DNA from: Thermoproteota archaeon
GTDB lineage: Archaea; Thermoproteota; EX4484-205; JAAOZP01
DNA length: 64,000 bases
Reading direction: 5' to 3'
Assembly: GCA_049700215.1 (NCBI GenBank)
Contig: JBNAVT010000002.1
Coordinates: 14,711 to 78,710, forward strand
The position numbers and the translations under genes are program-made. A model generated the notes under the pieces. It was not told the origin of the DNA, searched no databases, and saw nothing but the letters and a program-made list of their open reading frames with translations. Position 1 is the stretch's first letter. Each line of letters starts with the position of its first letter. This document shows positions 184 through 46,793 of this stretch, piece by piece.

Positions 184-266
184 TAGGCATAATGTTTTCT
201 AAGCATAATTAATAAACATTTTGGCCTGTTTCACGAGAATCCTTTTTCCAAGCGCTTAGCGCGCTG

Positions 267-469
267 CGGCCAGTGTGACAACCCTAGTGTCTACAGCCCC
301 GCCGTTAATCTTCAGCGTAAGCTTGCGGAAGCCTGTTTACCCGCATTATTCTTAACGGTAAGCAGGATCATTGCTGCTCAGCCGACTTTAAAGTGTTTGG
401 GCTTACGTTCAGATTACTGGAATCGAATCCTAAGGAGGATACTGTTTCAGGCTTATTGATAACCATGAT
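267..469 (-). pseudogene. Degraded fragment of a CARDB/Ig-like surface-protein domain
   Basis: Frameshifted pieces SNLNVSPNTL / MILLTVKNNAG / LTLKINGGAVDTRVVTLA; bounded on both sides by GCGCG palindromes. Confidence 0.45.
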
Positions 470-518
470 TAGCGCGCGAAGCGTCATGCTTCACCGAGGC
501 TCACTCTCCAGCCTAAAT

Positions 519-1044
519 TTATTTGGTTAATCCTAGTTTTTCGAGCATTATACGGTATAGTGTCGAGTCTATTCTGAAACCGACTTTAACAAGATCGTCC
601 AATGTTTTAAGAGCATCCTTTCTCGTAATCGAGCCTTGTCTGAAAGATTGAATTATCACGCTGAAAGTGCCTATGGGTGTTATTCCTAGGATTCTGGATA
701 CTCTTCCCGTCTCCCTGTCGTCGACGATAAAGAGTTCAGCGCTCAGCTGCCTGCAAAGTTTAAGAGCCTCCTTCTCGCCGAGACCAAGCTTAATATTGGC
801 GTCGAGGAAGCCTAATTCAGCATCTATTTCAGGTTTAACCTGTTCTCTTAGGATCCAGCTACCAACGGCTTTCTCAATTATGAAAGCATCGCTAATCTTA
901 AGCATCTTGCCTTGGACGACTGCTTCGTTGAAAACCGCCTCAGGGAATAAAGACTTTTCCGAAAGCATCCTTAACCATGTTCAGCCTGCCGACTTTAGCA
1001 AGGTAAATGAGCGGCGTAGAGTTTGAAACAGCTGTCTTTTTCAA
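519..1044 (-). pseudogene. DUF3368-type PIN-domain toxin, frameshifted
   Basis: TTG at 1044 reads KTAVSNSTPLIYLAKVGRLNMVKDAFGKVFIP, then a +1 shift at the GGG run ~943-945 continues EAVFNE...GLGEKEAL...IVDDRE...GTF...GFRID (ORF 519..968). Confidence 0.8.
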
Positions 1045-1045
1045 C

Positions 1046-1354
1046 TCATCCACGCTGGAGAGCTTTCAAGTCTTCCTCAAGATCCTCAGCAGCATACTGT
1101 TGCTGAACATTTCTCTGCGAAAGAACATCGATCATTTCCCAAACCGTGACCCCAGCTATCTCCGCCGCCCTCGGAAGCGTGGCCAATCCCTCCCGGTATG
1201 ATTCAACAGCCTTCCTCAGCCTCCATTCACGTATGTAATGTTCTAAAGCCCTGTTTAGAATAGTCAACTTGTCAACCCTCTCCTCTCTAGCTATCTCCTC
1301 TATTATTTTCACCTTATCCTTGGGAAATCTGGCTGATATGGTTTTCGAAGGCAT
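1046..1354 (-). CDS. UPF0175-family antitoxin with N-terminal ribbon-helix-helix
   Basis: KTISARF RHH strand; AVESYREGLATLPRAAEIAGVTVWEMID UPF0175 motif; directly upstream of the PIN gene. Confidence 0.85.
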   Translation of the reverse strand: MPSKTISARFPKDKVKIIEEIAREERVDKLTILNRALEHYIREWRLRKAVESYREGLATLPRAAEIAGVTVWEMIDVLSQRNVQQQYAAEDLEEDLKALQRG

Positions 1355-1498
1355 TCTTCATCATTGTATACGTTTTAAGACAATGTCCACATATTTTAAC
1401 TTTTCCAAACCCGTTTCATCTAGTTAAAAAGGTTTAACACGAACTAACACGGTCGCACGCGCTAGCCTAAAGGCTTAATAGAACTCCCGTTTTGAAGA

Positions 1499-1918
1499 AT
1501 GTTGATGGAGAGGTTTGAAGAGGCGCGCAGATGGTTTCTACAGGCGTTGAGGGATTTGAAGGCTGCTGAAACAAGCCTGGATGCTGAAAGCTACGAATGG
1601 AGCTCCTTTCAATCACAACAGGCGGCTGAGAAGGCAGTCAAGGCCCTGAGTTACGCTATGGGGCGCAGTCCTTGGGGTCACAGCATCGTCGAGTTGCTTG
1701 ATGGGTTGAGGGATGCTTATCCAGAGACTGATTCCTACATGAGCGATGCTAGGGAGTTGGATAGGCACTACATACCTTCAAGGTATCCGAATGCGTTTGA
1801 ATCGGGCTACCCTGCTCTATACTACGATAAGGTGTCTGCCGGGAGAGCTGTGGAATGCGCTAAGAGGATAATCGGATGGGTTGAGGGTGAGCTGAAACGT
1901 CTTGGAGTAAGGATGTAG
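1499..1918 (+). CDS. HEPN domain protein (HEPN-MNT toxin-antitoxin pair)
   Basis: WFLQALRDLKAA...SQQAAEKAVKA...GHSI...LDRHYIPSRYP. Confidence 0.9.
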   Translation: MLMERFEEARRWFLQALRDLKAAETSLDAESYEWSSFQSQQAAEKAVKALSYAMGRSPWGHSIVELLDGLRDAYPETDSYMSDARELDRHYIPSRYPNAFESGYPALYYDKVSAGRAVECAKRIIGWVEGELKRLGVRM

Positions 1919-1935
1919 AAGCGTTCGCTGAGAAA

Positions 1936-2280
1936 GTGAAGTCCTCGTTTCCAGTTGAAGCCATCCTGATCTTCGGATCATATGCAAAGAATCAACACGG
2001 CGACTGGAGCGATATAGATATACTTGTGTTAAGCGACGGTTTTAAAGATGTTAATATCCTTGACAGGTTTAAGATTCTCCAGGAGTTTAAAGTGGGAAGG
2101 ATTGAAGCATTCGCCTACACTTATGAGGAACTGGTTAGAATGGTGAATAAGGGGAATCCGCTGGCGTTGAATGCGTTAAGTGAAGGGAAACCGCTTATCG
2201 TCAGCCCAAGGGTGGAGAAACTGGTGTCTCTGGTTAGAGAAAAGTATGCGAAAAAGGGAAGAACGTGGATGTTTAAATAA
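1936..2280 (+). CDS. Minimal nucleotidyltransferase (MNT) antitoxin
   Basis: IFGSYAK...WSDIDILV GS-x10-DxD motif; adjacent to HEPN; start uncertain. Confidence 0.85.
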   Translation: MKSSFPVEAILIFGSYAKNQHGDWSDIDILVLSDGFKDVNILDRFKILQEFKVGRIEAFAYTYEELVRMVNKGNPLALNALSEGKPLIVSPRVEKLVSLVREKYAKKGRTWMFK

Positions 2281-2371
2281 CTGCGCGCTCAGCAGGAGGA
2301 TTATTGCCCTCCCTCTGCCAGCAGCCTCTTAAGAAGCGATTGCCAATAGACTCCTCTAGAATTGAAAAGAC

Positions 2372-2806
2372 TTATTGTTTTAAACTTTCCAGCTCCTCTA
2401 CCAGTCTTCCGCAAAGGCTGAAAACTTTCTCAGCCCTCTCGACAGCATCCTTAGAATCTTCCTCCCCTATTACTTCATCCGGGGATAGAAACGCTTCCTC
2501 ACCGCCGTAGAAGCTTGCCTCCCTCTTCTTAACCAAGATCTTAGAGGATTCGGAGAGATAGTTCAACTCCTCTTGGAACCATTCTGGAAACCTCTGTTTA
2601 ACGCTTAAGAGCACGTCTGAAACATCATGCACCTTCGGATACTCTATGCCAACAGCCTTAAGCACCGCTTTCAGAGAAAGCTCGACGCACTCTTGGCTCA
2701 GCCTCACAGCATAAGGATGATTCCCATCTCTGCAAGCATCTTCAGCATCACTAAGCCTAGCCTCAGCCTGTTTCAAGTATGATTGAGCAATCTTGATGAG
2801 CCTCAA
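2372..2806 (-). CDS. HEPN domain protein
   Basis: AVRLSQECVELSLKAVL...EYPKVHDV...KREASFYG. Confidence 0.9.
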   Translation of the reverse strand: MRLIKIAQSYLKQAEARLSDAEDACRDGNHPYAVRLSQECVELSLKAVLKAVGIEYPKVHDVSDVLLSVKQRFPEWFQEELNYLSESSKILVKKREASFYGGEEAFLSPDEVIGEEDSKDAVERAEKVFSLCGRLVEELESLKQ

Positions 2807-3543
2807 ACCAATATCTCCTCCCCAAACCTGTAATCAGGCTTCAGATCCCAATACCAGTTCTCCCTGTCGATGAAAACCCTTTTCGCACCAAGCCTGAGCA
2901 GCTCAGCTTTAAACTCCGTCAGAATCCTCTCCAGGAAACGATCCTTATCGTAAAGGATCACCGCGTCCTCAACCATGTCGATGAAGAGCAGGGGCTTCTT
3001 GGAAGCTTCCTCCTCAGTTAAAGGGTAGAAGCTGAAACCCGTGTAGACGCCATGCCGCCTGAGCCACGCTAACTCGTCTTCAAGCCTTCTCTCCAGCTGG
3101 AAAAGCAGGTCTATCCTCCTCCCGATGCTTCCGGAGAAATCGTTAGAAACGATAAGCAGATCTATGTCACTGTTATTGCCCGCTGTTCCACGGGCTACAG
3201 ATCCATATACTGCTAGGGATGTCAGGCTTAATGAGCGTGAAAAGATTTGAAAAGCGTCGCACAGAACTTTAACATACCTTTCCTGAGCAATCTTATTCAG
3301 GTTCCGCACTGTTTCGGAGGCCAGTAGGATGAAGCTCCTGGGGTCGAGAAGCCTGTAGCGCCTAGGCCTCCCCCAGTCGAAAACCAGTAGAACCCTTTTT
3401 TTATGAAGACTGCTGAAGGCTACTGAAAGCCTGTTTCCACTCACCTGCAGAAGCTCTGAAGCATCTTTAAACGTGAACAACTCGCCTTCAAACTCTAGGA
3501 AAAGCCTTGAATAAACCTCTCCCAGCCAAGCGGGTATCCACAT
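2803..3543 (-). CDS. Nucleotidyltransferase (MNT) with N-terminal winged-helix extension
   Basis: VYGSVARGTAGNNSDIDLLIV; C-terminal WYWDLKPDY; wHTH-like N-terminus; 4-nt overlap with the HEPN gene. Confidence 0.85.
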   Translation of the reverse strand: MWIPAWLGEVYSRLFLEFEGELFTFKDASELLQVSGNRLSVAFSSLHKKRVLLVFDWGRPRRYRLLDPRSFILLASETVRNLNKIAQERYVKVLCDAFQIFSRSLSLTSLAVYGSVARGTAGNNSDIDLLIVSNDFSGSIGRRIDLLFQLERRLEDELAWLRRHGVYTGFSFYPLTEEEASKKPLLFIDMVEDAVILYDKDRFLERILTEFKAELLRLGAKRVFIDRENWYWDLKPDYRFGEEILV

Positions 3544-3646
3544 TTTTTGCTTAACAATTACTTAAGATTAACGATTTATTAAGCTTTACTTTTTGTAGCG
3601 CGCTTGCTCAAAGAGTTGTTACGCGCGCTTCGGATATCTTCGAAAC

Positions 3647-4011
3647 CTAATTGATGTCTCCCAGCATCTTCTTCAGGATCTCCCTATTATAGTCTCTCGG
3701 TCTGAAAAGCTCCTTAAAAGCGGGGAAACTCTTCAAGAAGCCTCTCTTCTCCCCCACCGTGGCCAGAAGTTAGAGAGAGGGAATGCACCACAAGTCGGGA
3801 TGGTGAATGGTGCTCGCGAAGAGGCACATTTCCTCCCAGTAGCCCATGTTAGGATGTACGCATTCAACAATCACGATGGACCCGGTTTCAAAATTTATTC
3901 TCGTGGCTCTCCAGCGATATTCATCTTCGTCTAGAATCTCTATCCTTTTAGCGAAGAGCAGTGATTTCTTCTTCTCAATACCCCCTTTATGACGGGCGGT
4001 TTTCTCTCCAT
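3647..4011 (-). pseudogene. Degraded hypothetical gene
   Basis: Hand translation MERKPPVIKG/IEKKKSLLFAKRIEILDEDEYRWRATRINFETG...PDLWCIPSL*LLATVGEKRG...KMLGDIN* with one frameshift and one stop; flanked by palindromes at 3620 and 4018. Confidence 0.4.
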
Positions 4012-4029
4012 GATCCGAGCGCGCGCGCT

Positions 4030-4158
4030 ATACCAATGGAATTAATACCCGATTCGGATATTTTAGTTAATTATGAAGTTAGAGACTTGAGAGAGGTAAG
4101 TGGTTCAACCTATTGTGAGAAAGGCGGTTTACTTCTCGCTAAAATCACTCCTTCACTA
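4030..4158 (+). pseudogene. Internal fragment of a type I restriction-modification specificity subunit (HsdS-like TRD)
   Basis: IPMELIPDSDILVNYEVRDLREVSGSTYCEKGGLLLAKITPSL matches the HsdS pattern F(I/V)PM...TYF..GD(I/L)L(L/F)AKITP(C/S)(F/L)ENGK; it stops at the palindrome before ENGK. Confidence 0.7.
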
Positions 4159-4267
4159 GCGCGCGCAGCTCAAATCTCCATTGCTAACTTTAAACAAGCC
4201 TGCTTCAGTAGCCCTTGCCTTACAACCTTCATAATCATAGCCCTAATAATAACATAAATTAGGAGAT

Positions 4268-4699
4268 TTAGCTTTGCAAACCCATTCTTTCGAAAAATTC
4301 TCTTGCTGTCAATATTTCTGTTTTCCTGAATTTTTTCAGCTTAAGCAAGTGTTTATCTCCACTGATTATGTATTTTGCTCCTGCTTCAATTGCGCACTCC
4401 AAAACTTTATTATCTAACGGGTCCCTCTTTATTACGTCGACCTTCACTTTTGGGTTAACTATCTTCAATCTTTCTATCAAGGATTCTAATGCTGTTCTTT
4501 TATCTATTTCCGCTTTTCTGAATATCTCCTCGATTTTTGGATAAGTCAATACTCTGGCTAATTCCCTTAATATTTCTTCGGAGGAGTAGGATTCAACATC
4601 CTCTTTTTCCATTAGCCTGGAAAATTTCCTAGCTATGGCTTTTTTAAACAACAGCGATACGAGAATGTTAGTATCTAAGACTGCCTTGATCTTGCCCAT
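4268..4699 (-). CDS. PIN-family putative toxin (VapC-like)
   Basis: AVLDTNILVS...RDPLDNKVLECA...YIISGDKHLL. Confidence 0.9.
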   Translation of the reverse strand: MGKIKAVLDTNILVSLLFKKAIARKFSRLMEKEDVESYSSEEILRELARVLTYPKIEEIFRKAEIDKRTALESLIERLKIVNPKVKVDVIKRDPLDNKVLECAIEAGAKYIISGDKHLLKLKKFRKTEILTAREFFERMGLQS

Positions 4700-4938
4700 C
4701 TTATTGCCTCATCTATAAGCTTCTCAACATCCACCTTATTTTTCTCAGCAACGCTCCCTATTTTTTCAGACAACTCTTCTAAGCTTAATCTTCTTGCTTT
4801 CTTCAAGATTATTTCTTCATCTCTAGTCATGACTATAATCTTTTCTCCGGGCAAAATTCCGAACCTATCCCTTATCTCTTTTGGAATCACAACTTGACCC
4901 TTAGAAGAAATTTTCGTCACCCCTTCTATTTCTTCCAT
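4675..4938 (-). CDS. AbrB/MazE/SpoVT-family antitoxin
   Basis: KISSKGQVVIPKEIRDRFGILPGEK; overlaps the PIN gene. Confidence 0.9.
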   Translation of the reverse strand: MEEIEGVTKISSKGQVVIPKEIRDRFGILPGEKIIVMTRDEEIILKKARRLSLEELSEKIGSVAEKNKVDVEKLIDEAIRWARSRQS

Positions 4939-5588
4939 ATTTTTGGAATAGCTTTACTAGTATTTAAAGTTTTACCAATCCAACTTTTAAATCTTAATGG
5001 CTCCTGAATAGCGTGCGCTAATTGGCTGAATCCTCCTGTCAAAATACTGGAACTCTCGAAAATAGTGGCGGAAAAGTTCCTGAAATCATAATAACGAAGG
5101 AACCTAAGTATCCCCCGAGAATAGCACCCTGGTCTCTAGAAGATTTTATGAAAATAGCTCGTAAAAATCTGCCGGAAAATGATTTAATTACGCATTAAGC
5201 TGAAAGAAGATGTCCCTAGCCTACCCCGAGTTAGCGCGCGCTACATGAAGAGGAAAACAGGCTTCGTAGCTCGCTTCATCCTTCTCCTCAATTACCCATC
5301 CTCAATAAACAAAATCCTCAGCATGCAATACTATACACTCATCATATTTATAAATCGTTTCTAACCGAATAAATTAACTATTTTGAAGATAAAGAGAGAT
5401 GACTTTAAAGTCCTGAGAAGAGACCGAGATTTTCGAGAAACTTGTAAAGGTAATAACGCGCGTGGCGCAAGGAAGATAGTGGCAATAGAAAGGGCAAGCA
5501 TAACGGAGATTGAAAGGTTTGTAGCGCACGCTATAGTTCGGCAAAGGCTTTTATATTAATAATATGATGTGCACTATGATGACATTGA

Positions 5589-6641
5589 ATGTCTGAAGGT
5601 CAAGCAACTTTAGGGCTATTTGAGAAATACCTCACTTTATGGGTTATCCTCAGCATGATTGCGGGCTTTCTTCTAGGCAAACTTTTTCCGGAACTTGGCA
5701 TATGGATTGAATCGTTCTAGGTCGGAGACATATCCATTCCGATGGAAATATGCCTATTTCTTATGATGTATCCAACCATGGTGAACATTGAGTTTGGGGA
5801 AATCATGAAAGCTGCCAAGTCTCCGAAGCCCGCAATTCTCACATTAATGGGTAATTGGGTTGTGGCTCCAGCCCTTATGGCTTTGCTTGCCCGTCTATTT
5901 CTGCATAATTATCCAGAATATGCTGCAGGAGTGATTCTGCTGGGGATAGCGCCATGCACGGGCATGGTTTTATTCTGGATTCTATTAGCACAAGGTGACG
6001 TAGCTAAAGGCGTTGTAATAACTGCAATAAACGCCTTATCAACCCTCATACTCTATACGCCTCTGGCAACCTTCTACCTTGGAGTTGGAGGCGTTCCAGT
6101 TCCAGTAACCCCGATAGCTGAAAGCGTAATCTTATTTGTCGGTTTACCTCTAGCCGCTGGGCAAGCATCAAGGAAAGCTCTTATAAAGAGTAAGGGAGAA
6201 AAATGGTTCAAAGATAATTTTCGTCCGCTCATAGGAAATGTTGCAGCCATAGCATTGTTAGCCACAATCATAATGCTTTTCTCTCTAAAAGGGGAACTAA
6301 TCTTCAGCCAACCTTTAATAGTTGGCTTATTTTCAATACCATTGTTAATTCATTTCTTTACCATGGCTACGCTTTTCTACATTATACCCTGGCTTAAGTT
6401 CAGCTATAGGGATGCTGCCACCATTGCTTTTATAAGCTCAGGAACCCAGTTTGAGGTTGCCATAGCGACAGCAACCGTTATATTCGGCGCTGGCTCTGGG
6501 GCTGCCTTGGCAACAGTAATCGGTCCATTGTGGGAGGTTCCATCCATGCTGACATTCGTAAAACTAGCTCTTAAAACCAGAAATCATTTCCCTAATGATA
6601 ATACTGATCAAATCAAGGAGGAAGCTTGGCGAACATGGTAA
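5589..6641 (+). pseudogene. acr3: ACR3-family arsenite efflux permease with an in-frame TAG at codon 44
   Basis: ATG 5589 reads [19 protein letters not shown]... in frame with ORF 5742..6641 (MMYP, NWVVAP, APCTGMV, FEVAIA, GPLWEVP); TAG at 5718-5720. Confidence 0.85.
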
Positions 6642-6799
6642 AAGAAGTGACAAAGGATGGTAAAATCCTCTATGTCTGTGAAGAATGTGGTTTCGCCTAT
6701 GAAGAAAAGATTTGGGCGGAAAAATGCGAAAAATTCTGCTCCAAACACCACGCATGTTCACTTGAAATCACAAGCCACGCTGTTCAAACGAACATTTAA
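6635..6799 (+). CDS. 54-aa Cys/His-rich zinc-finger-like protein (below the ORF-track cutoff)
   Basis: MVKEVTKDGKILYVCEECGFAYEEKIWAEKCEKFCSKHHACSLEITSHAVQTNI; CxxC plus CxxxC plus HxC; overlaps the acr3 stop. Confidence 0.7.
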   Translation: MVKEVTKDGKILYVCEECGFAYEEKIWAEKCEKFCSKHHACSLEITSHAVQTNI

Positions 6800-7057
6800 A
6801 ACGTGTGCAGCGCGCTAGTACTCGAATTTACGGTTGGTATTTTCTGGGTTTTCTTGACATTAAGTGTTTTTAAAGAAGTTGCAGAGATGGGGCAGAGAAG
6901 AAAATACGCACTTATATTTTGTAAGACTTATAGGGCTGAAAAAAGAGATTTTGGGTCTTGATTGCGTTCTACAGAGGATAGCGCGCGATGCTTTTAAACC
7001 GGTCTCGTTAAAGTGGAGGTGTAAAAACTTTTACTGATACGATTATCACATGGCTAC

Positions 7058-7223
7058 TTACTCGCTTACCATCACTACTTCATTCTTCAGGTCGGCGAAA
7101 TGCTTGTCTCCCGTAACCACTTTAGTATTAGTTTTTCGGGCTGTTGCTAAGATGATTGAATCAGCTAACCCCCAATTACCCACTTTTTTCTCTACGTCTA
7201 TCTCACCTGCGATTTCAGCGATG
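7058..7223 (-). pseudogene. C-terminal half of a VapC/PIN toxin
   Basis: IAEIAGEIDVEKKVGNWGLADSIILATARKTNTKVVTGDKHFADLKNEVVMVSE*; begins exactly at the palindrome 7224-7235. Confidence 0.8.
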
Positions 7224-7321
7224 TAGCGCGCGCTTAATTGTCGATCAACTATGTTAAGCCAATCCCCAGGCTCTGACGATTATGGCAATTACGCCAACTA
7301 GTGTCTGAAACCCCTAGCCAT

Positions 7322-12939: not shown

Positions 12940-13096
12940 GTCTTTAAACAATACTCTTTCTCCTAGCGTGCGCTTCTGAATAACGACCCTTCTCCATTTT
13001 CAAGACCAGCGTGTGCCCAGCTAGCGTGCGTGCGGATACCGCCCGTCCCGCCGAAGTGCCGATAACAGCCGGCTCGCTAACCATGCCGGCAGCGCG

Positions 13097-38021: not shown

Positions 38022-39759
38022 ATGGGGGCTGGAGGAAAACACGGTAATTTTAAGGTTGCGGTCTACTGCACGGTCCGTGACGTGAATGAAATGGCTGATT
38101 CAACCTGGCTGGAAAACAGTTTCAAGGTTTTGAGCAGGAGCATTCCTTTAGACAAGGTTTATCTTGAGACCTTCGGCAGCGGTGCCTTGGCGGATAGAGG
38201 CTTAATGCAGAAGGTTAAGTCTTTTTTCAAAGATAAGGGTGTCGAGGTGTCCGGGGGAATAGCCACCAATGGTCCACGCGGCCAATCTCTCTGCTACTCG
38301 AAGCCCGGCGACAGAGAAATGCTTGAAAACGTTGTCAAGTATACTGCTGAATTGTTCGATGAGATTATCCTGGATGACTGGCTCTTCACAAGCTGCAAGT
38401 GCGAAGCATGCGCGCGCGCTAAAGCTGGACCGAGTACCGTTTGAAGACTATGGAGGATGTTGCGCAAAACATCATCTTTAAAACAGCCAAGGAGGTTAAC
38501 CCCAAGGTTAGGCTGATAATAAAATATCCAAACTGGTATGAGCATTACCAGTTTCTCGGCTACAGTCTCGATTTCGAATCAAGAGTCTTCGACATGGTTT
38601 ACACGGGCACTGAGACGAGAGACTCAGAGTATACTCATCAACACCTTCAGGAGTATCAGAGCTACGCTATAATGAGGTTTCTGGAGAACGTTAAGCCGGG
38701 TTTCAACGGCGGCGGCTGGATTGATCCTTTTGCCAAGAGGCGCGCGCGCTCTTGACCGTTACGCGGAGCAGATAAGGCTGACGCTCTTCGCTAAAGCCAG
38801 GGAGGTTACGCTCTTCTGCTACAGCGCCCTGCTCGAGTCCTTTAAGCAAGATGGGGCAAGAATTCCTATAAGCATCCTTGCACCAGTAGTCGGAACCATC
38901 TTCGAGGAGATGGATTTTCTTGTCGGGAAACTCGGCAACCCTTGTGGTGTTAAAAGCTATAAGCCGTTCAACTCGTCCGGCGAGGATTTTCTTCAAAACT
39001 ACATAGGCATGCTAGGAATTCCTGTCGAGATGACTCCGAGTTTCCCCGAGGCCAGTGAAACCGTGTTCCTAACCGAGTGTGCCAAGTTTGACGGCGGGAT
39101 AATGGGGAAAATCAAGAAGCATCTTGTTAAAGGCGGGGACGTTATTATTACATCCGGTTTTCTGAGGGCGATGCAGGATGAAGTGGTTAGAGAGCTGGCT
39201 GAGGTCAAATACACCGGTGGAAAAATACTTGTCAAAGACTTCTCACTAGGCTTTTTCCTTTTCGAAGATGTTTACCACTCGGATGTGGAAATACTTATCC
39301 CCCATATCAAATACCCGACTAACGATGTTTGGGAGGTCATTACGTGTTTAAGCAGGGGCAACGGATACCCGTTGCTGATGCTCATGAACTACGGGAGGGG
39401 AACACTATACCTACTTACAATACCGGATAACTTTAACGACCTATACCATCTCCCACCCACTGTTTTGAACAGTATTAGAAGAATCTTCTCGAAGAATTTG
39501 AAAATAAGCCTTGAAGGACCAAGCAGGGTCTGCATTTTCCTTTACGACAACGATGCTTTAATCCTTCATTCATTCCTGCCTCATCCCTCTAGAGTCAGCG
39601 TTGTGGTTAAGGGCAAGGGTTTAAAGATGCGTGAACTCTCCTCGGGCGAGATACTTAACGGCTTCGAGAGGAAATGGGGGATGGTTTTGAAAGAAGTATT
39701 GAAACCGTGTTCCCGGTTTACTTGGCGTCGTCTTCCTACAGTGCTTTCAGGGTTGAATA
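38022..39759 (+). pseudogene. Conserved TIM-barrel glycoside-hydrolase-like protein broken by three frameshifts
   Basis: Continuous protein recoverable as KVYLET...ILDDWLFTSCKCEAC/SWTEYRLK...IIKYPNWYEH...GTETRD...GGGWIDPF/LDRYAEQ.../ETVFPVYL...FRVE*; breaks at ~38423, ~38741, ~39680. Confidence 0.7.
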
Positions 39760-39806
39760 ATTATCTTTGAAAAGTTTAAACCAGTTTAAAACTGGAGTGT
39801 TTCAGG

Positions 39807-40374
39807 ATGAACGCGTTTAAGCAGAATGAGCGGTTGGGCAGGGGGGTTAACATACTGGGTTACGACCCGGTTTGGAAAAACAGGTCTATGGCAAGAATGA
39901 GGAGCGAGCATTTTAGGCTGATAGGGAGCGTCGGCTTCAACAGCGTACGCATCGCTCTCCACCCTTTTCGCGACGGGGCTATGGGTTGGGGAAACCGGCT
40001 TTCGGAAGAGTGGCTTGAAACATTGGAATGGGCGGTTGAACAGGCTCTTGGAAACTGGCTTATGCCGATAATCGATTTCCACGAGTTTATAATCATGGGG
40101 AGGGATCCGTCTGGAAACAGGGATAGGCTTCTCGCCTTCTGGGATCAGATTGGTAGACTCTACAGTAATTATCCTGACGGAGTGGTTTTCGAGCTTCTAA
40201 ACGAGCCCAATAGGGAGCTTACGCCTGAGCTTTGGAACCGTCTTCTCGCCGAGATCCTTAAAACAGTGCGCAAGACTAACCCGGATAGGACTGTGATAAT
40301 AGGCCCAGCCGTCTGGAACAGCATAACCGGCCTTGATAAGCTGGTTCTCCCGGAGGAAGACAGGAATATAATTG
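39807..40374 (+). pseudogene. GH5 endoglucanase, 3'-truncated
   Basis: GRGVNILGYDP; VRIALHPF; DFH; FELLNEP; ends DRNIIV at the palindrome; the HYY and nucleophile GEFG regions are missing. Confidence 0.85.
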
Positions 40375-40572
40375 TAGCGCGCACTCACGTTTTGGTCAAA
40401 CGCCTTTAAAAATTTGGAGTAGCAACCTTGAGGAAATTATTGCTCTAAGCTTGTATGAGCACCCTCTACTTAAGGTTAAGCGCGCGCTATTTGTATTGAA
40501 TGTTAATCATCTCGTCTGTATATCTAGACGAAACTTAAATTCTTGCCTCGGAAAAGGGTTTTGGGCAGGTTG

Positions 40573-42309
40573 TCAACCTAGTGTTCCGAAGGGGAAAACG
40601 CCTGCTGAAACCCAGGCGAAGAGGAGCGCGTTGAAGACTGTGCCCGTGCCTATGGATGAGGTAATCCTGTGAAGCCACCATGAGCACGCGGTTGAGGTGA
40701 CGAATTGCACCGTTATGAGCGGAAGGAACTCTATTAGGAAGCCGAGGAAAGAGGTGAGCGGCTTAACTTCGAACAGGAACATCGGGATATACTGCACGCC
40801 CATTACGAGAATGTAGGGTGCAATCTTGATCCCGATGGTTCTAAGCATTTCCAGGGCTTCCGGGAGAAAACCGTTCTCCCTGCTTCCGCCGCGCAGAATA
40901 TGCAGGTAAATCGCTTCAACGTAGAAGAAGACCAGGAAGAACGGTATGAGGGTTAGAAACAGTATGATTCTCTCCGGAACGCGGAGAACTCTGAAAATGG
41001 GTACGAAAATCCAAAGGTTCATGTCTAGGAATAGATGCACAAGGTAAACAATGGTGTAGAGCATTAGGAACATGCTTACTGCAACCAAGACTCCTCGCCG
41101 CGTGAAGGATTCTGATGCTAATCTTCTCATTCTCAGCCTAACGCCTAAAAATCTAGGCATGGCAAACAGGATGAGAGAACCCCCGGCTAAAGCAACCATG
41201 AGCAGCCACCAGGCTATTGAGGAGCCGAATAAAACTGGTGGGAAAGGCAGGCTGAAGCCCAGTATGAACGCTGGTAGGAGCAGCGCTATGCTCAGAGCCC
41301 CCCAAATAACCATAATCTTCCAGTCTTTAAGGGAGCCATGCTCCCGCGCCCTCTTATTCTGGGGCTTGCGCGGCGAGATGAACGTGGAGACCGGGAAGGT
41401 TAAACCTACTAGCGAGAAGACGCTCAGGAGCATCATTGTTTCACGGTAGGGGTATGTTAAGCCTTCTTCCAGCAGCCCGATTCGGCTTGCTCCACTGGGC
41501 TTGAGAGCGCTGCCCATCCAGACAACTGTTTCGGAAACAATAGTCGGGTCGAGGGGTTCAAGCAGATGGGTTGTAGCTGGGGCTACTAGTTTCCTTGCGG
41601 TTCCAGAGTTGAAATCACCGTATAGTCTTCCAGGAGAAACCTCATGAACCCCGAAAACCGGGGGTAGCCATTCCCCAGCAACCTGGTTCAGGTTGAAAAG
41701 AACGTCCTGCCTACCTATGGCTACCAGCAGGTTCCTTGGGAAAGTGGTGTTTAGAACCCCGTATTCCAACGGGCTGGAGGCCATTCCGCCTAAGCCTCCC
41801 GCTATGAGCACGGTTGCTTTAACCCCCCGGTGGGCGGCGGCAGCAGCCCTGACCGCTCCAGCACCCAAGCTGTGCCCAACTAGGCCGAGTGAAGAAGCGT
41901 CTACATACGGCAGCTTTTCAACGTATCTTAAGGCTGCAATAGCCCCGAGGCTGGGGTCCTTAGTTGCGCCGAGCCGCCCACCGGAGTCGCCATGGCCCAC
42001 AACATCTATCGATAATGCGACGAAGCCCCTTCTAGCGAGCTCTAAGGCTATGCTGCTCATGGATTCTTTAGCACTGCTGATACCGTGCACAAGGACTACT
42101 GCCGGCATAGGGTTCTCCACGGTGGCCGCATGCGGGCGGTATAGTGCCCCGCTTATGTAGTGTTCGCCATCCGGTATTCTAACAGTTTTTACTTCAAGCC
42201 TTCCGAAGTCGTTGTTTATTAGGAATGCTGCGACTGTCCCTAGTAGGAAGACAGTGGCTAAAACAATCAGTGTCAAACAGCTTGTTCCCGCTGGCCCCAT
42301 GCGTGTCAA
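40573..42309 (-). CDS. Membrane-bound alpha/beta hydrolase
   Basis: VLVHG; GHGDS; GHSLGAG nucleophile elbow; TTHLLE; multi-TM C-terminal half. Confidence 0.85.
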   Translation of the reverse strand: MTRMGPAGTSCLTLIVLATVFLLGTVAAFLINNDFGRLEVKTVRIPDGEHYISGALYRPHAATVENPMPAVVLVHGISSAKESMSSIALELARRGFVALSIDVVGHGDSGGRLGATKDPSLGAIAALRYVEKLPYVDASSLGLVGHSLGAGAVRAAAAAHRGVKATVLIAGGLGGMASSPLEYGVLNTTFPRNLLVAIGRQDVLFNLNQVAGEWLPPVFGVHEVSPGRLYGDFNSGTARKLVAPATTHLLEPLDPTIVSETVVWMGSALKPSGASRIGLLEEGLTYPYRETMMLLSVFSLVGLTFPVSTFISPRKPQNKRAREHGSLKDWKIMVIWGALSIALLLPAFILGFSLPFPPVLFGSSIAWWLLMVALAGGSLILFAMPRFLGVRLRMRRLASESFTRRGVLVAVSMFLMLYTIVYLVHLFLDMNLWIFVPIFRVLRVPERIILFLTLIPFFLVFFYVEAIYLHILRGGSRENGFLPEALEMLRTIGIKIAPYILVMGVQYIPMFLFEVKPLTSFLGFLIEFLPLITVQFVTSTACSWWLHRITSSIGTGTVFNALLFAWVSAGVFPFGTLG

Positions 42310-42789
42310 CGTTTTTCCTTAAGCCTATATATTTGTTTCCCTATGCTTTCTGCAAGCGTGTTGTTCAACGTTTTCACGCGTGCCCGAACCGTTTCCACTT
42401 AAGGCTGGTTTCACGTTTTCCCCGCCTATGGTTCTCCGATTTAAATTACTTATATCATTGAGTAGCAGTAATTCGACTTAGCGCGCTGTATTCGAGCAAA
42501 AAAGTATTGGTAGAGCAGGCGAGCCTGATCCAGAACGGACTTTGATCCTTTCTATTTCGTGAAAGAACATTACAGGAAACAGAGGTTGGTTGAGCGAAGA
42601 CGCTGAAGCCTCCAGACAAAGAATGTTTACGGGATGGGTTGCACATCTCCATTTTTACTCCTGGCCGCGGGCGGGTTACTTACGTAGAGTATGTGAAGCC
42701 TTAACAATAATGGGAATCAGGAAAAGCGTAGCGCGCACTATAATCTTTGCAGGATTAAAATATTTGTTCTCTAAAGGGGTTTTATGGGG

Positions 42790-43267
42790 TCAGTCCTCCG
42801 GCATCCTTGTTTTTCTTTCAACGGCTGCTTTAGCCAGAGTCTCACCAAGCCTCTTCAACTCAGACAAGTCTTTTTCAAACGGTGATCCTTTCTCCCTGAG
42901 CCCCCAGACAACGCCTCCAGCAGTCTTCTCCATTTTGAAAGCTGGGAAAATCCTTTCTATGCTTAACAGTGCTGAGTCGCTTGAACTGCCGCCGCATGTG
43001 AATGGCTGCCGGTTTTCCAGCAGCCTTCTCCCTTACGCTCCAGGCTCTGTCGAAGAAATCCTTCAACAATCCCGCCATGTAGCCGAAATAGTTGGGTGAG
43101 CCGAATGCTACGGCGTTGCACGATATAAGGTCTTCAACAGTAGCGTAGTCCACGCGTTTCAGCTCAGCAGTGGCGCCTTCAACCTTCTCCACGCCTTGAG
43201 CAACCACCTTAGCTAAGGCTTCAACGTTTCCCCCTCGAGAATAGTAAAGTATTAGGACTCTAACCAT
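42790..43267 (-). pseudogene. Flavodoxin/WrbA-like protein, frameshifted
   Basis: MVRVLILYYSRGGNVEALA...GSPNYFGYMAGLLKDFFD...GKPAA, shift at ~43000, then FTCGGSSS...LKRLGETLAKAA...ED*. Confidence 0.8.
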
Positions 43268-43381
43268 GTTCCCAAGCCTCCTGCTGTAACCCTGCAATCC
43301 TAACAAAAATACTTTACTGTGAAAGCTTTATGCTAAACTTTTGATTGCCAGAACTGGTGGAAATAAAGGTTAAAAAGGAGA

Positions 43382-44572
43382 TTGAAGAATTTTTTTCTCA
43401 TGGAGGGCTTCCAGTTTCAATGTCCCACTAGAATCGTTTTCGGCAGGGGTGTTGAAAACCTGGTTGGGGAAGAGGTGAAGAAATACAGTGATAAGGTTCT
43501 TTTCCACTATGGTGGTGGAAGCATAAAGAGAATAGGTCTCTACGACAGGGTTGTAGAATCCTTGAAGAGTGCTGGCGTCAGGTTTATCGAGCTTCCAGGT
43601 GTTAAGCCTAATCCTCGTTTAAGCCTTGTTAGAAAGGGAATAGAGGTGTGTAGGAGTAGTGGTGTAGATTTCATACTGGCGGTTGGAGGCGGGAGCGTCA
43701 TAGACTCTGCTAAAGCCATAAGCGTAGGCGTTCCCTATAGGGGTGACGTGTGGGATTTCTACGTTGACAGGGCTGAGCCAGCGGAGGCTTTGCCCGTCGG
43801 GGTAGTTTTAACTATACCTGGGGCGGGGAGTGAGGCGAGCAGCAGCTCAGTTATCACGAACGAGGAGGATTGGCGTAAGCTTTCGCTCACAACTGAGCTC
43901 CTACGCCCCAGGTTCGCGTTGATGAATCCTGAGGTTACTTTTTCAGTACCGCCCTACTATACTGCTTGCGGAGCAGCTGATATAATGGCTCACGTCATGG
44001 AGAGGTATTTCACTAACGTGCGGCACGCGGACCTGACGGACAGGCTTTGCGAAGCAACTTTAAAAACCGTGATCAGGAATGTTCCAATAGTGTTAAGCGA
44101 GCCTGAGAACTATGATGCTCGAGCTGAAATAATGTGGGCTAGCACTGTTGCGCACAACGATCTTCTGGGGACCGGCCGGATAGGAGACTGGGCTACGCAC
44201 ATGATAGAGCATGAGCTCAGCGGTCTATACGACGTGCCGCATGGCGCTGGGCTGGCCGTATTGTTTCCAAGCTGGATGAGACACGTGTATAAGCACCGCC
44301 TAGACATATTCGTGCAGTTCGCCGTTAGAGTCTGGAACGTTGAACCCGACTTCCAGGATCCTGAGAAAACCGCGCTCGAAGGCATGGAGAGGCTGAAAGC
44401 CTTCTTCAGGCGGATAGGGCTTCCGACAACTCTAAGGGAACTCGGTGTTTGCGACGATAGGCTTGAGGAGATGGCGCTTAGATGCACTGATTCAGGAGCC
44501 TCGAGAATAGGGAGCTTCGTGAAGCTGGGGAAGGACGATGTTCTGAGCATTCTGAGAAACGCCAGGGGATAA
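43382..44572 (+). CDS. Iron-containing alcohol dehydrogenase (NADH-dependent butanol dehydrogenase-like)
   Basis: PTRIVFG; YGGGS; AVGGGSVIDSAK; DIMAHVME; HMIEHE; HGAGLA. Confidence 0.93.
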   Translation: MKNFFLMEGFQFQCPTRIVFGRGVENLVGEEVKKYSDKVLFHYGGGSIKRIGLYDRVVESLKSAGVRFIELPGVKPNPRLSLVRKGIEVCRSSGVDFILAVGGGSVIDSAKAISVGVPYRGDVWDFYVDRAEPAEALPVGVVLTIPGAGSEASSSSVITNEEDWRKLSLTTELLRPRFALMNPEVTFSVPPYYTACGAADIMAHVMERYFTNVRHADLTDRLCEATLKTVIRNVPIVLSEPENYDARAEIMWASTVAHNDLLGTGRIGDWATHMIEHELSGLYDVPHGAGLAVLFPSWMRHVYKHRLDIFVQFAVRVWNVEPDFQDPEKTALEGMERLKAFFRRIGLPTTLRELGVCDDRLEEMALRCTDSGASRIGSFVKLGKDDVLSILRNARG

Positions 44573-44578
44573 CTCCGG

Positions 44579-45814
44579 CTAACGCTTCTTCCTCAGGAGA
44601 CCGTTCGCCCTATCGATGGGATCCTGATATTTTGAAACCCTCCCGTTTAGAACATCCCTGTACCTTACGGCTGCACGGAGCTTAGCGGACTCGTATATGG
44701 CTTCCGCTATTGCTTTTGCCATCATCCCGTCCTCGCCGTCAACCTCCGGCCTTCTTCTTTTCTGAACAGCCTCAAGAAAATCGTAGCACTCCAGTGTAAT
44801 CCCGTCTGTAAAACCATGTGGGAAAAGCCTGTTCTTCCCCTCTTCACCTATGCTTCTGAGGAATTCTTCTCTAAGCTCAAGCATGGTGCGCTGAGTTCCA
44901 TCCTTAAGAATGAGCACAGCATTGTCGAAAGGACCGTGGAAGACATCACCCGAGTCGAGAAGACACCCTTCAGACCCATAGTAAACAACCTTCGTAAAAG
45001 AGTGGCCCGGCGCAGCCATAGTCCAGCTCCATGTCCCGACGAGACCGTTTTCAAAGCTTATTAGCGCAACCCAGCTGTCCTCCACCTCGCTGTAAAAGGT
45101 TTCCCCCTGCTTATCGTGGGGCCATTTTTCAAACTGTCCTACGAAAGCGTAAACCCTGTCCACCTCCCCGAAGAAATATCTCATCGAGTCGCAGAAATGT
45201 GCTCCACTATCCATAGCCAGGCCTCCCCCGCTCAGGTTCCTCTCGACTCTCCAATGCCACTTCTTGGGCTTCAAGGGGTCGTTCCAAGAGGCGTGAATCG
45301 CGTAGAACATTCTGGGCTTGCCGATCAGCCTGGCCTCGTTAATCAGCCAGTGCATAGTCCTCTGGTTCAATCCGCGGCGAATGTTCTCCGCCGTCGCGAC
45401 AATCCTCCCATGCTTTCTCCCAGCAGCTATTATCATCTTGCTCGCCCTCAATGATACTCCAAGGGGTTTCTCAACCATCACATCCGCCCCAGACCTGATA
45501 CACTCTATTGCAACCTTATGGTGTTCAGAATGCGGCGTACATATGTCGACGGCCCTCGGCCTAGCCTTCCTCAACATTTCCCTGGTGTCGAGGAAGACAG
45601 GGGGCCTGTAGCCGAGGAGCTTCTCAGCCTCGTCCGCGAAAGATTCAACAGCCTCCTTTGAAACATCGTTTAAGGCGACAAGCCTGAGTTTCCCAGGCTC
45701 CTTCTCGCTGATCCTTGCATAAGCCATCAAGTGTTCACGGGCTATTCCTCCGCAACCAGCTATCGCGAGTTTAACCGTCCCATCTCCTACCATAGTGGCT
45801 CTCCTGCTTAACAC
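44579..45814 (-). CDS. Gfo/Idh/MocA family oxidoreductase
   Basis: IAGCGGIA; ICTPHSEH; VEKPL; SGGGLAMDSGAH; EVED. Confidence 0.9.
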   Translation of the reverse strand: MLSRRATMVGDGTVKLAIAGCGGIAREHLMAYARISEKEPGKLRLVALNDVSKEAVESFADEAEKLLGYRPPVFLDTREMLRKARPRAVDICTPHSEHHKVAIECIRSGADVMVEKPLGVSLRASKMIIAAGRKHGRIVATAENIRRGLNQRTMHWLINEARLIGKPRMFYAIHASWNDPLKPKKWHWRVERNLSGGGLAMDSGAHFCDSMRYFFGEVDRVYAFVGQFEKWPHDKQGETFYSEVEDSWVALISFENGLVGTWSWTMAAPGHSFTKVVYYGSEGCLLDSGDVFHGPFDNAVLILKDGTQRTMLELREEFLRSIGEEGKNRLFPHGFTDGITLECYDFLEAVQKRRRPEVDGEDGMMAKAIAEAIYESAKLRAAVRYRDVLNGRVSKYQDPIDRANGLLRKKR

Positions 45815-46092
45815 GCCTTAAAAACATATTTTTCAAAATCGCTGGAGACGCTTCTGTAATTGGGACTCTGCCTCCCTGTTAAAGGTTAAGCCTTTTTAAG
45901 ACGCGCGTAAGCTTTTTAGCACTCCGTTTCCCTGTGGAACGAGGTTTTCCCCGGCTTCAAACCGGTTTTTGCATGGCGGAGCCCTATTTGGCTTCAGGCG
46001 CCTTTTCCAGAGGGCTTTATAAACAGGCGTAACCTTAATATTCACCCTTTTAGCGAATGAGCATACTGCAGGCAGGGGTCAAGGAATAAGAA

Positions 46093-46494
46093 ATGAGCAC
46101 GATAATGTTTAGAGAGGTGGATTCGCTCGGCAGGGAGTATGAGGAGGCTCTTAAGAATGTTGAAACCGGTAAGAACGTTAAGACCGGCGGGGCTCTCGTC
46201 ACTTTTCCGGATAAGGAGAGGAAAATCTGCGAGCTTTCAGCAACCTACATGGTGAAGCTGGGAAGGTTCTCCAAGGAGCAGAGAGTAGTAGTTACTCTCA
46301 CGTTTAACAAGGATAGTAATGGGGTTTACGTGGCGAACATGGATGACTCTGTGTTCCACGTGGTTCAGGAGGAGAAGGGAGGCCTGAAAGAGGTTTGGAG
46401 TGGAAGGCTTAGAGAAGCGATGGATAAACTGGGGGATGTTGCCAGGATTCACGTAAACGTGATGTCAAGCCTCTCCAGCAAGTCTTCGTCCTGA
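46093..46494 (+). CDS. Hypothetical protein
   Basis: 133-aa ORF with host-like codon usage; no recognised motif. Confidence 0.65.
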   Translation: MSTIMFREVDSLGREYEEALKNVETGKNVKTGGALVTFPDKERKICELSATYMVKLGRFSKEQRVVVTLTFNKDSNGVYVANMDDSVFHVVQEEKGGLKEVWSGRLREAMDKLGDVARIHVNVMSSLSSKSSS

Positions 46495-46793
46495 TTAGCG
46501 CGCGAATACTAAATATTTGGCGCATAATAAGCCGCCTCCTACGTTTAGTCTTGAGACGTAGCTCGAGGATTAGATTAGCGCGCGTCTTTTTGGTACTCCC
46601 CTGTTCTGATAGATATTTCCTAGATTATCAATTCCTAATAAGTGCACGCGCTGTTGTTAAAGCCAAAAACTAGCTTTGTGGCTTAATTCTTGGGCTTTGC
46701 CACAATCATGTTAAGATTTTCCACTAGCGCGCGCGCTAAAGCAAAAAACTTATATATTACTTCCGTAGGGTCTAAAAAAGTGAGCGATATAAA

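Follow-up and report, generated by a model that had tools for sequence, protein, structure and literature searches.

A short GC palindrome at DNA junctions in a hot-spring Thermoproteota archaeon: probable filler from the joining of DNA ends

Introduction

A short palindrome, TA(GC)nTA, recurs in the genomes of a group of hot-spring archaea, and we describe it here from a stretch of 64,000 nucleotides (referred to below as the window) of a Thermoproteota archaeon (assembly GCA_049700215.1, contig JBNAVT010000002.1, positions 14,711 to 78,710). The palindrome is probably filler left where two DNA ends were joined, that is, a scar of repair or joining that arose without any pre-existing site. 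This reading follows from indels between the genome of the window (G000) and its closest relative (G002), in which the motif alone makes up the short allele, and from the copies in the window itself, which lie at breaks of synteny, at the ends of gene fragments and at the borders of modules. Two kinds of event are seen: a stretch of 0 to ~2000 bp is missing in one genome with [T]A(GC)3-9T[A] in its place, or foreign or displaced gene pieces are stitched in with a copy of the motif at their ends.

An earlier note on the window had reported the palindrome, in a 12-bp form, at almost every junction of accessory DNA, and this observation is confirmed. Of the two readings given in that note, the second, by which the motif is a scar left at joins, is borne out, since the motif fills the junction of the short allele and is missing at both ends of the long one, and bare insertions of 6-8 bp occur too. 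The first, a recombination site for the capture of cassettes, finds no support, as empty and long alleles lack a copy and no flank is conserved, and no genome-wide search for recombinase families was made. The word "undescribed" used at the time still applies to the literature searched, as queries on the motif in archaea, in Brockarchaeota, at deletions and among highly iterated palindromes returned no description of it; the listed papers that contain the 10-mer use it, judging by their titles, in primers or oligos.

Copies in the Window and Across the Genome

The 10-mer AGCGCGCGCT is found five times in the window (5233, 7225, 13091, 14267, and 40479, the same five positions that had been named before), against a shuffle mean of 0.03, and at least five copies were reached by none of 100 shuffles of the window. 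The exact 12-mer TAGCGCGCGCTA has a single copy (5232-5243), any copy being present in 0 of 100 shuffles. The octamer GCGCGCGC gives 15 overlapping matches that make up 11 separate runs, in agreement with an earlier count of at least 11 (shuffle mean 0.56, largest 3). Runs of at least three alternating GC units number 29, with 12 in a first accessory zone (257-7235), four in a second (12964-14719), nine in a third (38410-46738) and four elsewhere (18970, 20866, 47537, and 54174); as all of these last four lack the A..T flank, they are probably due to chance. At least two degenerate copies near 12964 and 13029 raise the total in the zones to ~27. The earlier figure of about 33 was thus too high, whereas the confinement to three zones stands for the runs of four or more units (11 of 11), and so does a tract length of 3-5 units in the window. 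The zones contain toxin-antitoxin pairs (HEPN+MNT twice, PIN), a transporter, gene fragments and sugar-related genes, and the stretches between them pyrimidine, ABC-export and other core genes.

The enrichment is not specific to the window but extends over the whole of G000, a metagenome-assembled genome (MAG) of 2.09 Mb in 85 contigs with 49% G+C, in which the window is C2:14711-78710. Runs of (GC)n with n from 3 to 9 were counted 273, 204, 53, 2, 3, 1, and 1 times (537 in total), and the 264 runs with n of at least 4 carry a [T]A..T[A] flank. Flanks were compared in the 263 of these that are not too near a contig end, with A at -1 in 197, T at -2 in 136, T at +1 in 194, and A at +2 in 127; conservation stops at these two positions on either side. 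Runs framed by A..T peak at n = 4 (53, 118, 33, 2, and 2 for n from 3 to 7), compared with 9, 2, and 0 for runs framed by T..A. The octamer GCGCGCGC is the most over-represented of the genome, at 12 times its zero-order expectation. All-against-all comparison of the 150-bp flanks of the 264 sites gave only eight similar pairs and no family of more than three, so the flanks are unique, and copies cluster slightly, 47% having a neighbor at less than 1 kb against 40% (sd 3.8%) of random intergenic positions. According to a crude gene caller of our own (1865 genes), coding sequence makes up 85% of the genome, yet only 56 of the 264 runs fall wholly within genes. Copies inside genes do exist and break them, and the absence of the motif from housekeeping stretches is what would be expected if selection purged hits in needed genes.

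Large Indels Between Close Relatives

Comparisons were made with the syntenic contigs of four relatives (G002, G008, G009, and G003) and with 705 kb of G002, which is ~94% identical to G000. Chaining of BLAST matches between G000 and G002 gave 76 collinear gaps, of which 43 contain the motif and 23 have it at most 12 bp from the gap edge. When a clean large indel is defined by one allele of at most 25 bp and another of at least 100 bp, 24 such indels separate G000 from the 705 kb of G002. The short allele is the motif, with three or more GC units, in 10 of these 24, and it consists of [TA](GC)3-9[TA] only, for a long allele of 122-1988 bp; the chance of a run in a 30-bp span is ~0.008 (537 runs in 2.09 Mb). 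Four of these scars are the following.

G002 C4:12286, GCGCGCGC followed by TA, G000 counterpart of 1750 bp
G002 C4:25571, GCGCGC, G000 counterpart of 1988 bp
G000 C29:7192, (GC)4, G002 counterpart of 320 bp
G000 C33:10192, (GC)9, G002 counterpart of 639 bp

Junctional filler is recognised by extra bases exactly at the meeting point of two sequences that, in the unbroken allele, either adjoin or lie apart, and this is seen in 10 of the 24 clean indels as well as in the window cases described below. Five of the ten scars are in G002 and five in G000, which means that they arose after the split of the two, by independent events in sister lineages. Since in six of the ten the long allele carries an open frame (239-652 aa) that crosses or occupies the part lost, often intact over both junctions, the long form is the older, functional state and the scar is the mark of a deletion. 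No copy of the motif lies at either end of these long alleles.

The 250-bp flanks of 41 motif sites of G002 were alignable to G000 on both sides in nine cases, on one side in 22 and on neither in 10, compared with 354, 148, and 98 of 600 random intergenic positions and with 493, 31, and 76 of 600 random genic positions. Motif sites differ from the intergenic positions both for one flank (Fisher, p = 1.6e-4) and for both flanks (p = 4.9e-6), so that the enrichment at breakpoints exceeds the effect of location in spacers. The earlier proposal to hold breakpoints against intergenic DNA is thereby answered in favor of the motif (one flank alignable in 22/41 against 148/600).

In the window, synteny with the four relatives breaks at 7313-7341, 12926/14718, 32833/32994, 37901/39272, 40309/40568, 42338/42767, and 46496/54975. 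The unaligned stretches hold copies at each of these breaks except 32833/32994, less than ~70 bp from the edge at 12926/14718, 42338/42767, and 46496, and at ~70-530 bp from it at the other three. The ~430 bp at 42338-42767 are common to G000 and G011 and missing in G002 with no filler, a plain deletion beside the scarred ones.

Junctions in the Window

Copies at module borders, at the ends of gene fragments and at frameshifts, as they had been described earlier, were each seen at the nucleotide level. The first zone reads as follows.

259-264, motif TTA-GCGCGC-TG, 20 bp ahead of a piece starting at 285 that matches G006:C18
472-478, motif TTA-GCGCGCG-AA, 3 bp past the end (468) of the same G006:C18 piece
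2283-2288, motif (GC)3, 2 bp past the end (2280) of a HEPN/MNT module, 93% to G008:C9
3598-3603, motif GTA-GCGCGC-TT, 6-12 bp past the end (3586-3592) of the second HEPN/MNT module
3622-3628, motif TTA-CGCGCGC-TT, 18 bp ahead of a piece starting at 3647 that matches G007:C12
4019-4028, motif (GC)5 then TA, from the first base past the end (4018) of the G007:C12 piece
4159-4166, motif CTA-(GC)4-AG, ~120 bp before the piece with the PIN module (4283-4989), no exact border seen
5232-5243, TAGCGCGCGCTA, flanked by the PIN module and the SBF transporter gene, homology borders being absent within 200 bp in the five genomes searched
6810-6815, motif CA-GCGCGC-TA, in the spacer past the SBF gene (5742-6641)
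6981-6987, motif ATA-GCGCGCG-AT, at least 66 bp before a piece (7053-7230) matching G006 and G008
7226-7233, motif GTA-(GC)4-TTA, at the end (7223-7230) of the piece 7053-7230

This zone is a mosaic of modules that lie at scattered places in the relatives, and the ends at 468, 2280, 3586-3592, 4018, and 7223-7230 adjoin copies of the motif (0-12 bp); synteny with G002, G008, and G009 begins at 7313-7341. The second HEPN/MNT module sits at other places in G002, G008, G009, and G006. The two HEPN+MNT pairs and the PIN-domain gene together occupy 1499-4699, each module being at different places in the relatives.

The second zone is an insert between two pyrimidine genes, with the following parts.

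12927-14717, 1.8-kb mosaic insert between the pyrC-like and pyrD-like genes
12964-12974, degenerate copy TAGCGTGCGCT (CpG to TpG), 38 bp past the end of G002 homology (12926)
13092-13099, motif A-(GC)4-T, at the exact 5' end of the ABC-ATPase gene fragment
13100-14019, plus strand, 5'-truncated ABC-ATPase fragment, captured DNA, 90% to the intact gene at G007:C14:30798-31722
14067-14074, motif TAG-(GC)4-TA, 48 bp past the end of homology of the ABC fragment
14268-14275, motif ATA-(GC)4-TT, within the mosaic insert
14458-14616, minus strand, RadA N-terminal (HhH) fragment, 44% to residues 36-97 of RadA2 by tblastn
14710-14716, motif CA-GCGCGCG-TG, right edge of the insert, G002 homology being back at 14718

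The ABC-ATPase fragment has no source copy in G000, where its only other match is of 112 bp at 85%, and the DNA of the RadA fragment matches the inside of radA2, a gene discussed below, in G008 and G007. The spacer between the two pyrimidine genes measures only 87-147 bp in G002, G009, G008, and G003, and that of G002 holds one copy of AGCGCGCGCT. A single copy in the short spacer of G002, against a copy at each edge of the 1.8-kb insert of G000, is what an attC-like site used by a cassette-capturing, site-specific recombinase could produce. We nevertheless consider such a site very unlikely, as the motif is a 12-bp perfect palindrome with nothing conserved beyond two positions on either side, the long and empty alleles mostly have no copy, and the pieces are gene fragments rather than cassettes. 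The earlier statement that the window lacks a recombinase holds for the 30 open reading frames (ORFs) that were scanned with Pfam, in which no recombinase or integrase was found, no genome-wide recombinase search having been made.

The third zone contains two damaged genes and several small events, for which alignments with G009 (38410 and 38740) and G011 (42481 and 42731) were used.

38022-39770, plus strand, gene split into three ORFs at two motif copies, a single 581-aa frame in G009
38410-38419, (GC)5 then TA, in place of ~19 bp of lost coding sequence
38740-38749, (GC)5, net gain of 7 bp in coding sequence
39807-40409, plus strand, truncated GH5 cellulase gene (positions 5-190 of the 272 of Pfam Cellulase), which continues in G002
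40377-40382, TA-GCGCGC-AC, junction of a ~2.4 kb deletion, both flanks being present in G002, 2.4 kb apart
40480-40487, motif TTAA-(GC)4-TA, in 40309-40568, a stretch with no G002 counterpart
42481-42486, TTA-GCGCGC-T, deletion of ~290 bp
42731-42736, bare 6-bp insertion of GCGCGC
46498-46504, TTA-GCGCGCG-AA, net gain of 7 bp right after the stop of ORF 46093-46494, homology breaking at 46496
46578-46584, motif TTA-GCGCGCG-TC, inside the 242-bp stretch 46497-46738
46727-46736, CTA-(GC)5-TAA, right edge of 46497-46738, G008 homology being back at 46739

At the cellulase gene, the junction of G000 reads ...AATATAATTG-TAGCGCGCAC-TCACGTTTTGG..., and G008 has lost a different part of the same region, with TAGCGCGCGCTA exactly at its junction. 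The copy at 40480 is beyond reach of the alignment of 40340-40640 with G011, which has no homology left of ~40555. The copy at 46498 is missing in G002, G008, G009, and G011, and together with that at 46727-46736 it bounds a stretch (46497-46738) with no match in G002, G008, or G009. To its right, 46794-53953 is an ABC peptide-type transporter block (an 876-aa binding protein, two permeases and further genes) that is in place in G008 (91%) and missing there in G002, G009, and G011.

The bare insertions at 42731 (6 bp), 38740 and 46498 (net 7 bp each), together with the slight clustering of copies, would suit a palindrome of 8-12 bp that is itself a tiny inserted unit, two copies of which later recombine so that the DNA between them is deleted and one copy stays. 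The probability that we attach to this is slim. Three events would be needed for each deletion, 8 bp are short for homologous recombination, and the long alleles of the ten clean scars have no copy at either end; moreover, both flanks were alignable at only nine of the 41 sites of G002, and five of these nine were read as larger indels.

A Possible Joining Mechanism

If the motif is filler, its form suggests how it might be made. Each broken 3' end would receive the same short tail, TA followed by alternating GC, and self-pairing of (GC)n would then let two such tails anneal without a fixed register, over 3-5 units and rarely up to 9. The product would be X-TA-(GC)n-TA-Y with a mode at n = 4, and the join would then be sealed. 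Selection would remove hits in needed genes, and copies would for this reason build up in spacers, toxin-antitoxin islands and pseudogenes. Such tailing would account for the symmetry of the motif, its variable tract length, the occasional loss of TA on one side and the lack of a template in the flanks. A fixed double-stranded adapter ligated between the ends would do so equally well.

The terminal TA dinucleotides also call to mind a transposon. Tc1/mariner excision leaves a short palindromic scar flanked by TA, and the motif could by analogy be the excision footprint of a cut-and-paste element that targets TA and has GCGC ends, the TA being the target duplication, the (GC)4 two 4-nt stubs and the deletions the outcome of intramolecular transposition before excision. 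TA-(GC)4-TA is indeed the product to be expected of inverted ends plus a TA duplication, T stands at -2 in 136 and A at +2 in 127 of the 263 sites, and in three of the ten clean scars both TAs are, by eye, native to the long allele. However, the long allele of the remaining seven has by eye one native TA or none, several junctions lack it on one or both sides, and tracts extend up to (GC)9. No repeated element adjoins any of the 264 sites. The repeats of G000 are large surface-type proteins, two of which were tested by Pfam with no transposase match. DDE_3 and Y1_Tnp were found in none of the 17 assemblies of the genus, the search covering these two transposase families only, and MAGs can lose copies of insertion sequences (IS). 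A transposon footprint therefore appears distinctly unlikely, and joining filler is the reading kept below.

Distribution in the Genus and Phylum

The motif is present in 10 of the 17 assemblies of the genus. Counts of the 10-mer are 118 in G000, 88 in G008, 70 in G002, 33 in G009, 32 in G007, 18 in G006, 16 in G010, six in G013, three each in G011 and G014, and zero in seven others, the reversed, non-complemented word used as a control giving 0-3 per genome. Once formed, copies lose their sequence through CpG transitions: among variants that depart from the motif by one letter at a core position, transitions (71) outnumber transversions (37), with CpG to TpG/CpA in the lead. For every perfect copy there are 2.2 one-mismatch copies in G000 and G002, 2.3 in G008, 2.8 in G009, 3.9 in G010, and 26 in G011. 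The last of these genomes has 81 near-copies against 24 for the reversed control and therefore seems to keep old relics of the motif.

Among the 401 genomes sampled from the phylum, five motif-rich outsiders fall in two other families, with counts of the 10-mer against its reversed control of 30/0 (G142), 35/1 (G389), 14/1 (G395), 22/0 (G105), and 10/1 (G363). They hold 4, 4, 2, 5, and 0 copies of the exact 12-mer, respectively, the control being 0, and the 12-mer was located between ORFs at all three loci inspected in these lineages. The phenomenon may thus be wider than this genus.

A HIP1-like or regulatory word, spread by methylation-linked repair bias or by selection, would also be over-represented, as GCGCGCGC is with its first rank among octamers at 12 times the expectation, and could likewise be mostly intergenic. 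Such an origin is nonetheless highly improbable, since the motif arises as insertions and at deletion junctions and not by substitution, it breaks genes, and the same spacers in close relatives do not have it. C5 methylase was found only in G001 and G004, which are free of the motif; no other methylase class was searched.

A Candidate Operon

As a tentative candidate for the agent, suggested by correlation, we put forward an accessory operon that encodes a RadA paralog (RadA2) and a small PriS-like protein from the superfamily of archaeo-eukaryotic primases (AEP), AEP2. With the DNA_primase_S profile, 16 of the 17 genomes gave a match to the normal PriS, and only some gave an additional small match, which is AEP2. 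Both genes of G000 lie outside the window.

G000 C17:241-1062, AEP2, 273 aa
G000 C59:5478-6308 and C17:1-1062, radA2-AEP2 operon, two contigs joined by a 55-base overlap

Searches with the protein and with a profile of six sequences gave full-length AEP2 in G000, G002, G006, G007, G008, and G013, which have 118, 70, 18, 32, 88, and 6 copies of the motif. In G009 (33 copies), AEP2 is in pieces with stop codons and relics of both genes of the module are present. It was not found in the remaining ten genomes, namely G010 (16 copies) and nine with 0-3 copies. AEP2 always overlaps the end of the RadA2 gene, and the sole RadA of G003, G004, G009, G010, and G011 is the other one, ~50% identical. The two-gene module hence marks the motif-rich genomes, with G009 and G010 in between. 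G011 is at 85-86% nucleotide identity as close to G000 as are G008 and G009, yet it has no module and almost no perfect copies (3), and by identity of the pyrD protein the probable record of G008 (77%) is no closer than that of G003 (76%); the pattern of the module on the tree is therefore patchy and does not reflect one deep split. The rise in the ratio of one-off to perfect copies from G000, G002, and G008 through G009 and G010 to G011 is as would be expected if production stops when the module is lost.

RadA2 has the domains of the RadA/Rad51 family (Pfam Rad51 308 bits, HHH_5 46.7 bits), and AEP2 matches Pfam DNA_primase_S with 32.2 bits for a cut-off of 26.8. The DxD and SGxRGFHxH motifs of AEP2, a further D and the Zn ligands are invariant, and residues D97, D99, H153, H155, and D205 are so in 35 sequences. 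The structural model (pLDDT 85.5) is nearest to archaeal PriS, then to eukaryotic Pri1 and then to LigD-type NHEJ (non-homologous end joining) polymerases, the best Foldseek match being PriS (E = 6e-10, TMq 0.60-0.65). By its motifs, modeled fold and Pfam match, AEP2 is a predicted enzyme of the AEP superfamily. The family counts 42 proteins, all annotated as hypothetical, in a set of 5.8 billion, and 44 clusters at E of at most 1e-30.

The archaeal PriSL of Saccharolobus is described as having terminal transfer activity, annealing via 2-4 GC pairs and end joining in vivo (PMC12019639), and by analogy an AEP would be a reasonable writer of GC-based joins. Involvement of AEP2 and RadA2 in the formation of the motif is in our opinion possible but more doubtful than probable. 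The pair may be a booster or specialiser of a reaction that other enzymes also perform, or a passenger. A stronger proposal, that of a dedicated route of end joining and capture in which the PriS-like primase-polymerase and its own RadA paralog write untemplated, self-complementary TA(GC)n tags that zip the ends together, seems rather unlikely to us.

Other candidates for the agent were tried and rejected. Reverse transcriptase (RVT_1), IS630/Tc1 transposase (DDE_3), Ku and Y1_Tnp are each absent from the 17 genomes of the genus, DDE_3 being positive in five control genomes and Y1_Tnp in six, and C5 DNA methylase is encoded by two of the 17 (G001 and G004), both motif-free.

Some further observations concern the module itself. 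Pieces of radA2 and AEP2 turn up often among the captured DNA, and the intact copies of G000 and G002 lie at different places and are 59% identical as proteins. At G002:C47 ~17694 (locus L133), radA2 of the G000 type and most of AEP2 were lost (~1.75 kb) with no GC filler, and a different copy is on C43. The module thus seems to move. In G008 it has a Y-family polymerase gene just upstream and a HEPN+MNT pair just downstream.

Authenticity of the Junctions

Seven junctions of the window (38410, 40377, 40480, 42481, 42731, 46498, and 46578) are bridged by contigs of run X1, which were made with a different assembler and may come from the same sample as the G000 assembly. No letter differs in the pieces over 38410, 40377, and 40480, one does in that over 42481/42731, and the piece over 46498/46578 has five differing letters and 22 gaps. 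Other hot-spring runs (X2, X4, and X5) have G002-like alleles with no copy at 46496; their small shares, like the stretches left uncovered, count neither for nor against the junctions. The junctions thus withstand the check on their reality set out with the earlier note, being present in independently assembled contigs (X1), which are contigs and not raw reads, and in many assemblies.

That the motif is an artefact of assembly, amplification or adapters is scarcely credible. G000 is admittedly a MAG of 85 contigs in which a (GC) run of three or more units lies at most 150 bp from 17 of the 170 contig ends, but the motif recurs in assemblies from different projects and assemblers, including the single-contig genome G105, Logan contigs bridge junctions, copies decay via CpG transitions and the reversed control gives only 0-3. 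The 5' end of C41 and the 3' end of C69 match at 97% and diverge within the motif, a hint that the sample contains strain variants.

Limits of the Interpretation

Several points weigh against the interpretation proposed here. Fourteen of the 24 clean indels have no filler, among them the loss of radA2-AEP2 itself in G002. Overlapping flanks of the direct-repeat type, which fit classical microhomology-mediated end joining (MMEJ) or direct repeats, are present in eight of these 14, so that a second, ordinary route runs alongside. Cutting at TA would likewise suit the three scars for which the long allele already has a TA at either deletion end point. The step of tailing and annealing is one that we infer, and we know of no enzyme that adds a defined TA(GC)n tail. 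Support for the junctions comes from assembled contigs and not from raw reads.

As for the operon, its link with the motif is a correlation among related, non-independent genomes and emerged from a test of seven chosen gene families. G010 has 16 copies and no module was found in it (the genome is 89% complete). The five motif-rich genomes of other families have no intact module: in G142 there are two pseudogene bits resembling AEP2, in G389 and G395 small AEPs of other kinds, and in G105 and G363 PriS only. Conversely, G090 has an AEP2-like fragment and only one copy of the motif. G023 encodes a distant AEP2 homolog (31%, not beside radA) and has no over-represented palindrome in 400 kb, which neither supports nor refutes the link.

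Other Repeated Sequences in the Genome

A second octamer, GTTGAAAA/TTTTCAAC, has 653 copies on both strands of G000, evenly spread and at 9.6 times expectation. It is no CRISPR repeat and may be a promoter or terminator word. CRISPR-type repeats were not found in G000, where no 24-mer occurs more than four times. The main repeats of this genome are paralogous, very large proteins (556-1620 aa) located at contig ends and outside the window (C8:101-2707, C42:26-2977, C9:39320-40990, C85:5985-10010, C10:51783-56645, and others). Five of eight paralogs have a PD-(D/E)xK-like "..IIVEVKT.." stretch at the C-terminus, and Pfam matches to these proteins were sub-threshold only.

Implications

If the interpretation as filler is right, ~40% of the clean large indels between G000 and G002 (10/24) would come from one process that signs its work, which would leave a readable record of double-strand-break repair, gene loss and capture of foreign DNA in an uncultured archaeal lineage. 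It would also be a main source of accessory regions and pseudogenes in that lineage, and would point to an unknown enzyme activity that tails DNA ends with a defined sequence, or joins any two of them in the manner of an adapter, at high temperature, and that could be of use in the laboratory. How archaea devoid of Ku rejoin breaks would become testable with a concrete candidate operon. Should the dedicated route exist, every repair, deletion or capture would be permanently bar-coded in the genome.

Comparison with Known Systems

Several families of short palindromes resemble the motif. HIP1 of cyanobacteria is an octamer palindrome located within genes as well as in non-coding DNA, tied to methylases and arising by substitution, whereas only 56 of the 264 copies of the present motif are in genes, their origin is by insertion or as filler, and C5 methylase, the one methylase class searched, was found only in motif-free genomes. 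Repetitive extragenic palindromic (REP) elements are imperfect palindromes of 20-40 nt with a conserved head and a Y1 (RAYT) transposase, unlike a perfect palindrome of 10-12 bp in genomes with no Y1_Tnp (0/17). Integron attC sites are imperfect inverted repeats of ~55-140 bp with conserved core sites and an integrase nearby; here, conservation stops at two positions on either side, flanks are unique and no integrase is among the 30 ORFs of the window that were scanned. The GC clusters of yeast mitochondria are short GC-rich palindromes in many copies and linked to deletions. The footprints of Tc1/mariner/IS630 elements share the short palindromic scar and the TA flanks, but no such element and no DDE_3 transposase was found here, the tract varies from 3 to 9 units and the TA is often not native.

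Among repair processes, classical MMEJ differs in that the same filler word, and not homology of the flanks, is found here at unrelated junctions, and Ku-dependent NHEJ in that Ku is absent from the 17 genomes of the genus. The N/P nucleotides of V(D)J joining, the templated insertions of polymerase theta and the telomere healing of breaks are cases in which a polymerase writes extra nucleotides at joins. What is added there is either random, or a copy of the flanks, or a repeat on one side, and none, to our knowledge, gives a fixed self-complementary word at both ends; the reverse transcriptase RVT_1 was found in 0 of 17 genomes. We know of no system that puts a single self-complementary word at hundreds of unrelated junctions.

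Further parallels are with other enzymes of the AEP superfamily. In bacterial NHEJ (Ku and the PolDom of LigD) and in IEE, an AEP-helicase that promotes IS excision and deletions in E. coli, AEPs bridge 3' ends and are tied to genomic deletions, and the part of the source considered here reports no sequence-defined filler (PMC9943667). The present case differs by the absence of Ku (0/17 genomes) and of a helicase fusion on the candidate. End joining by PriS/PriL in Saccharolobus is similar in bringing an enzyme of the AEP family to double-strand breaks, with annealing of GC pairs and formation of indels, which are reported to be mostly of 1-2 bp and to use microhomology from the flanks (PMC12019639). 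Here, by contrast, the junction holds a fixed palindrome of 8-22 bp, often with the loss of kilobases or the capture of foreign DNA, and the candidate is a small PriS paralog accompanied by a RadA paralog.

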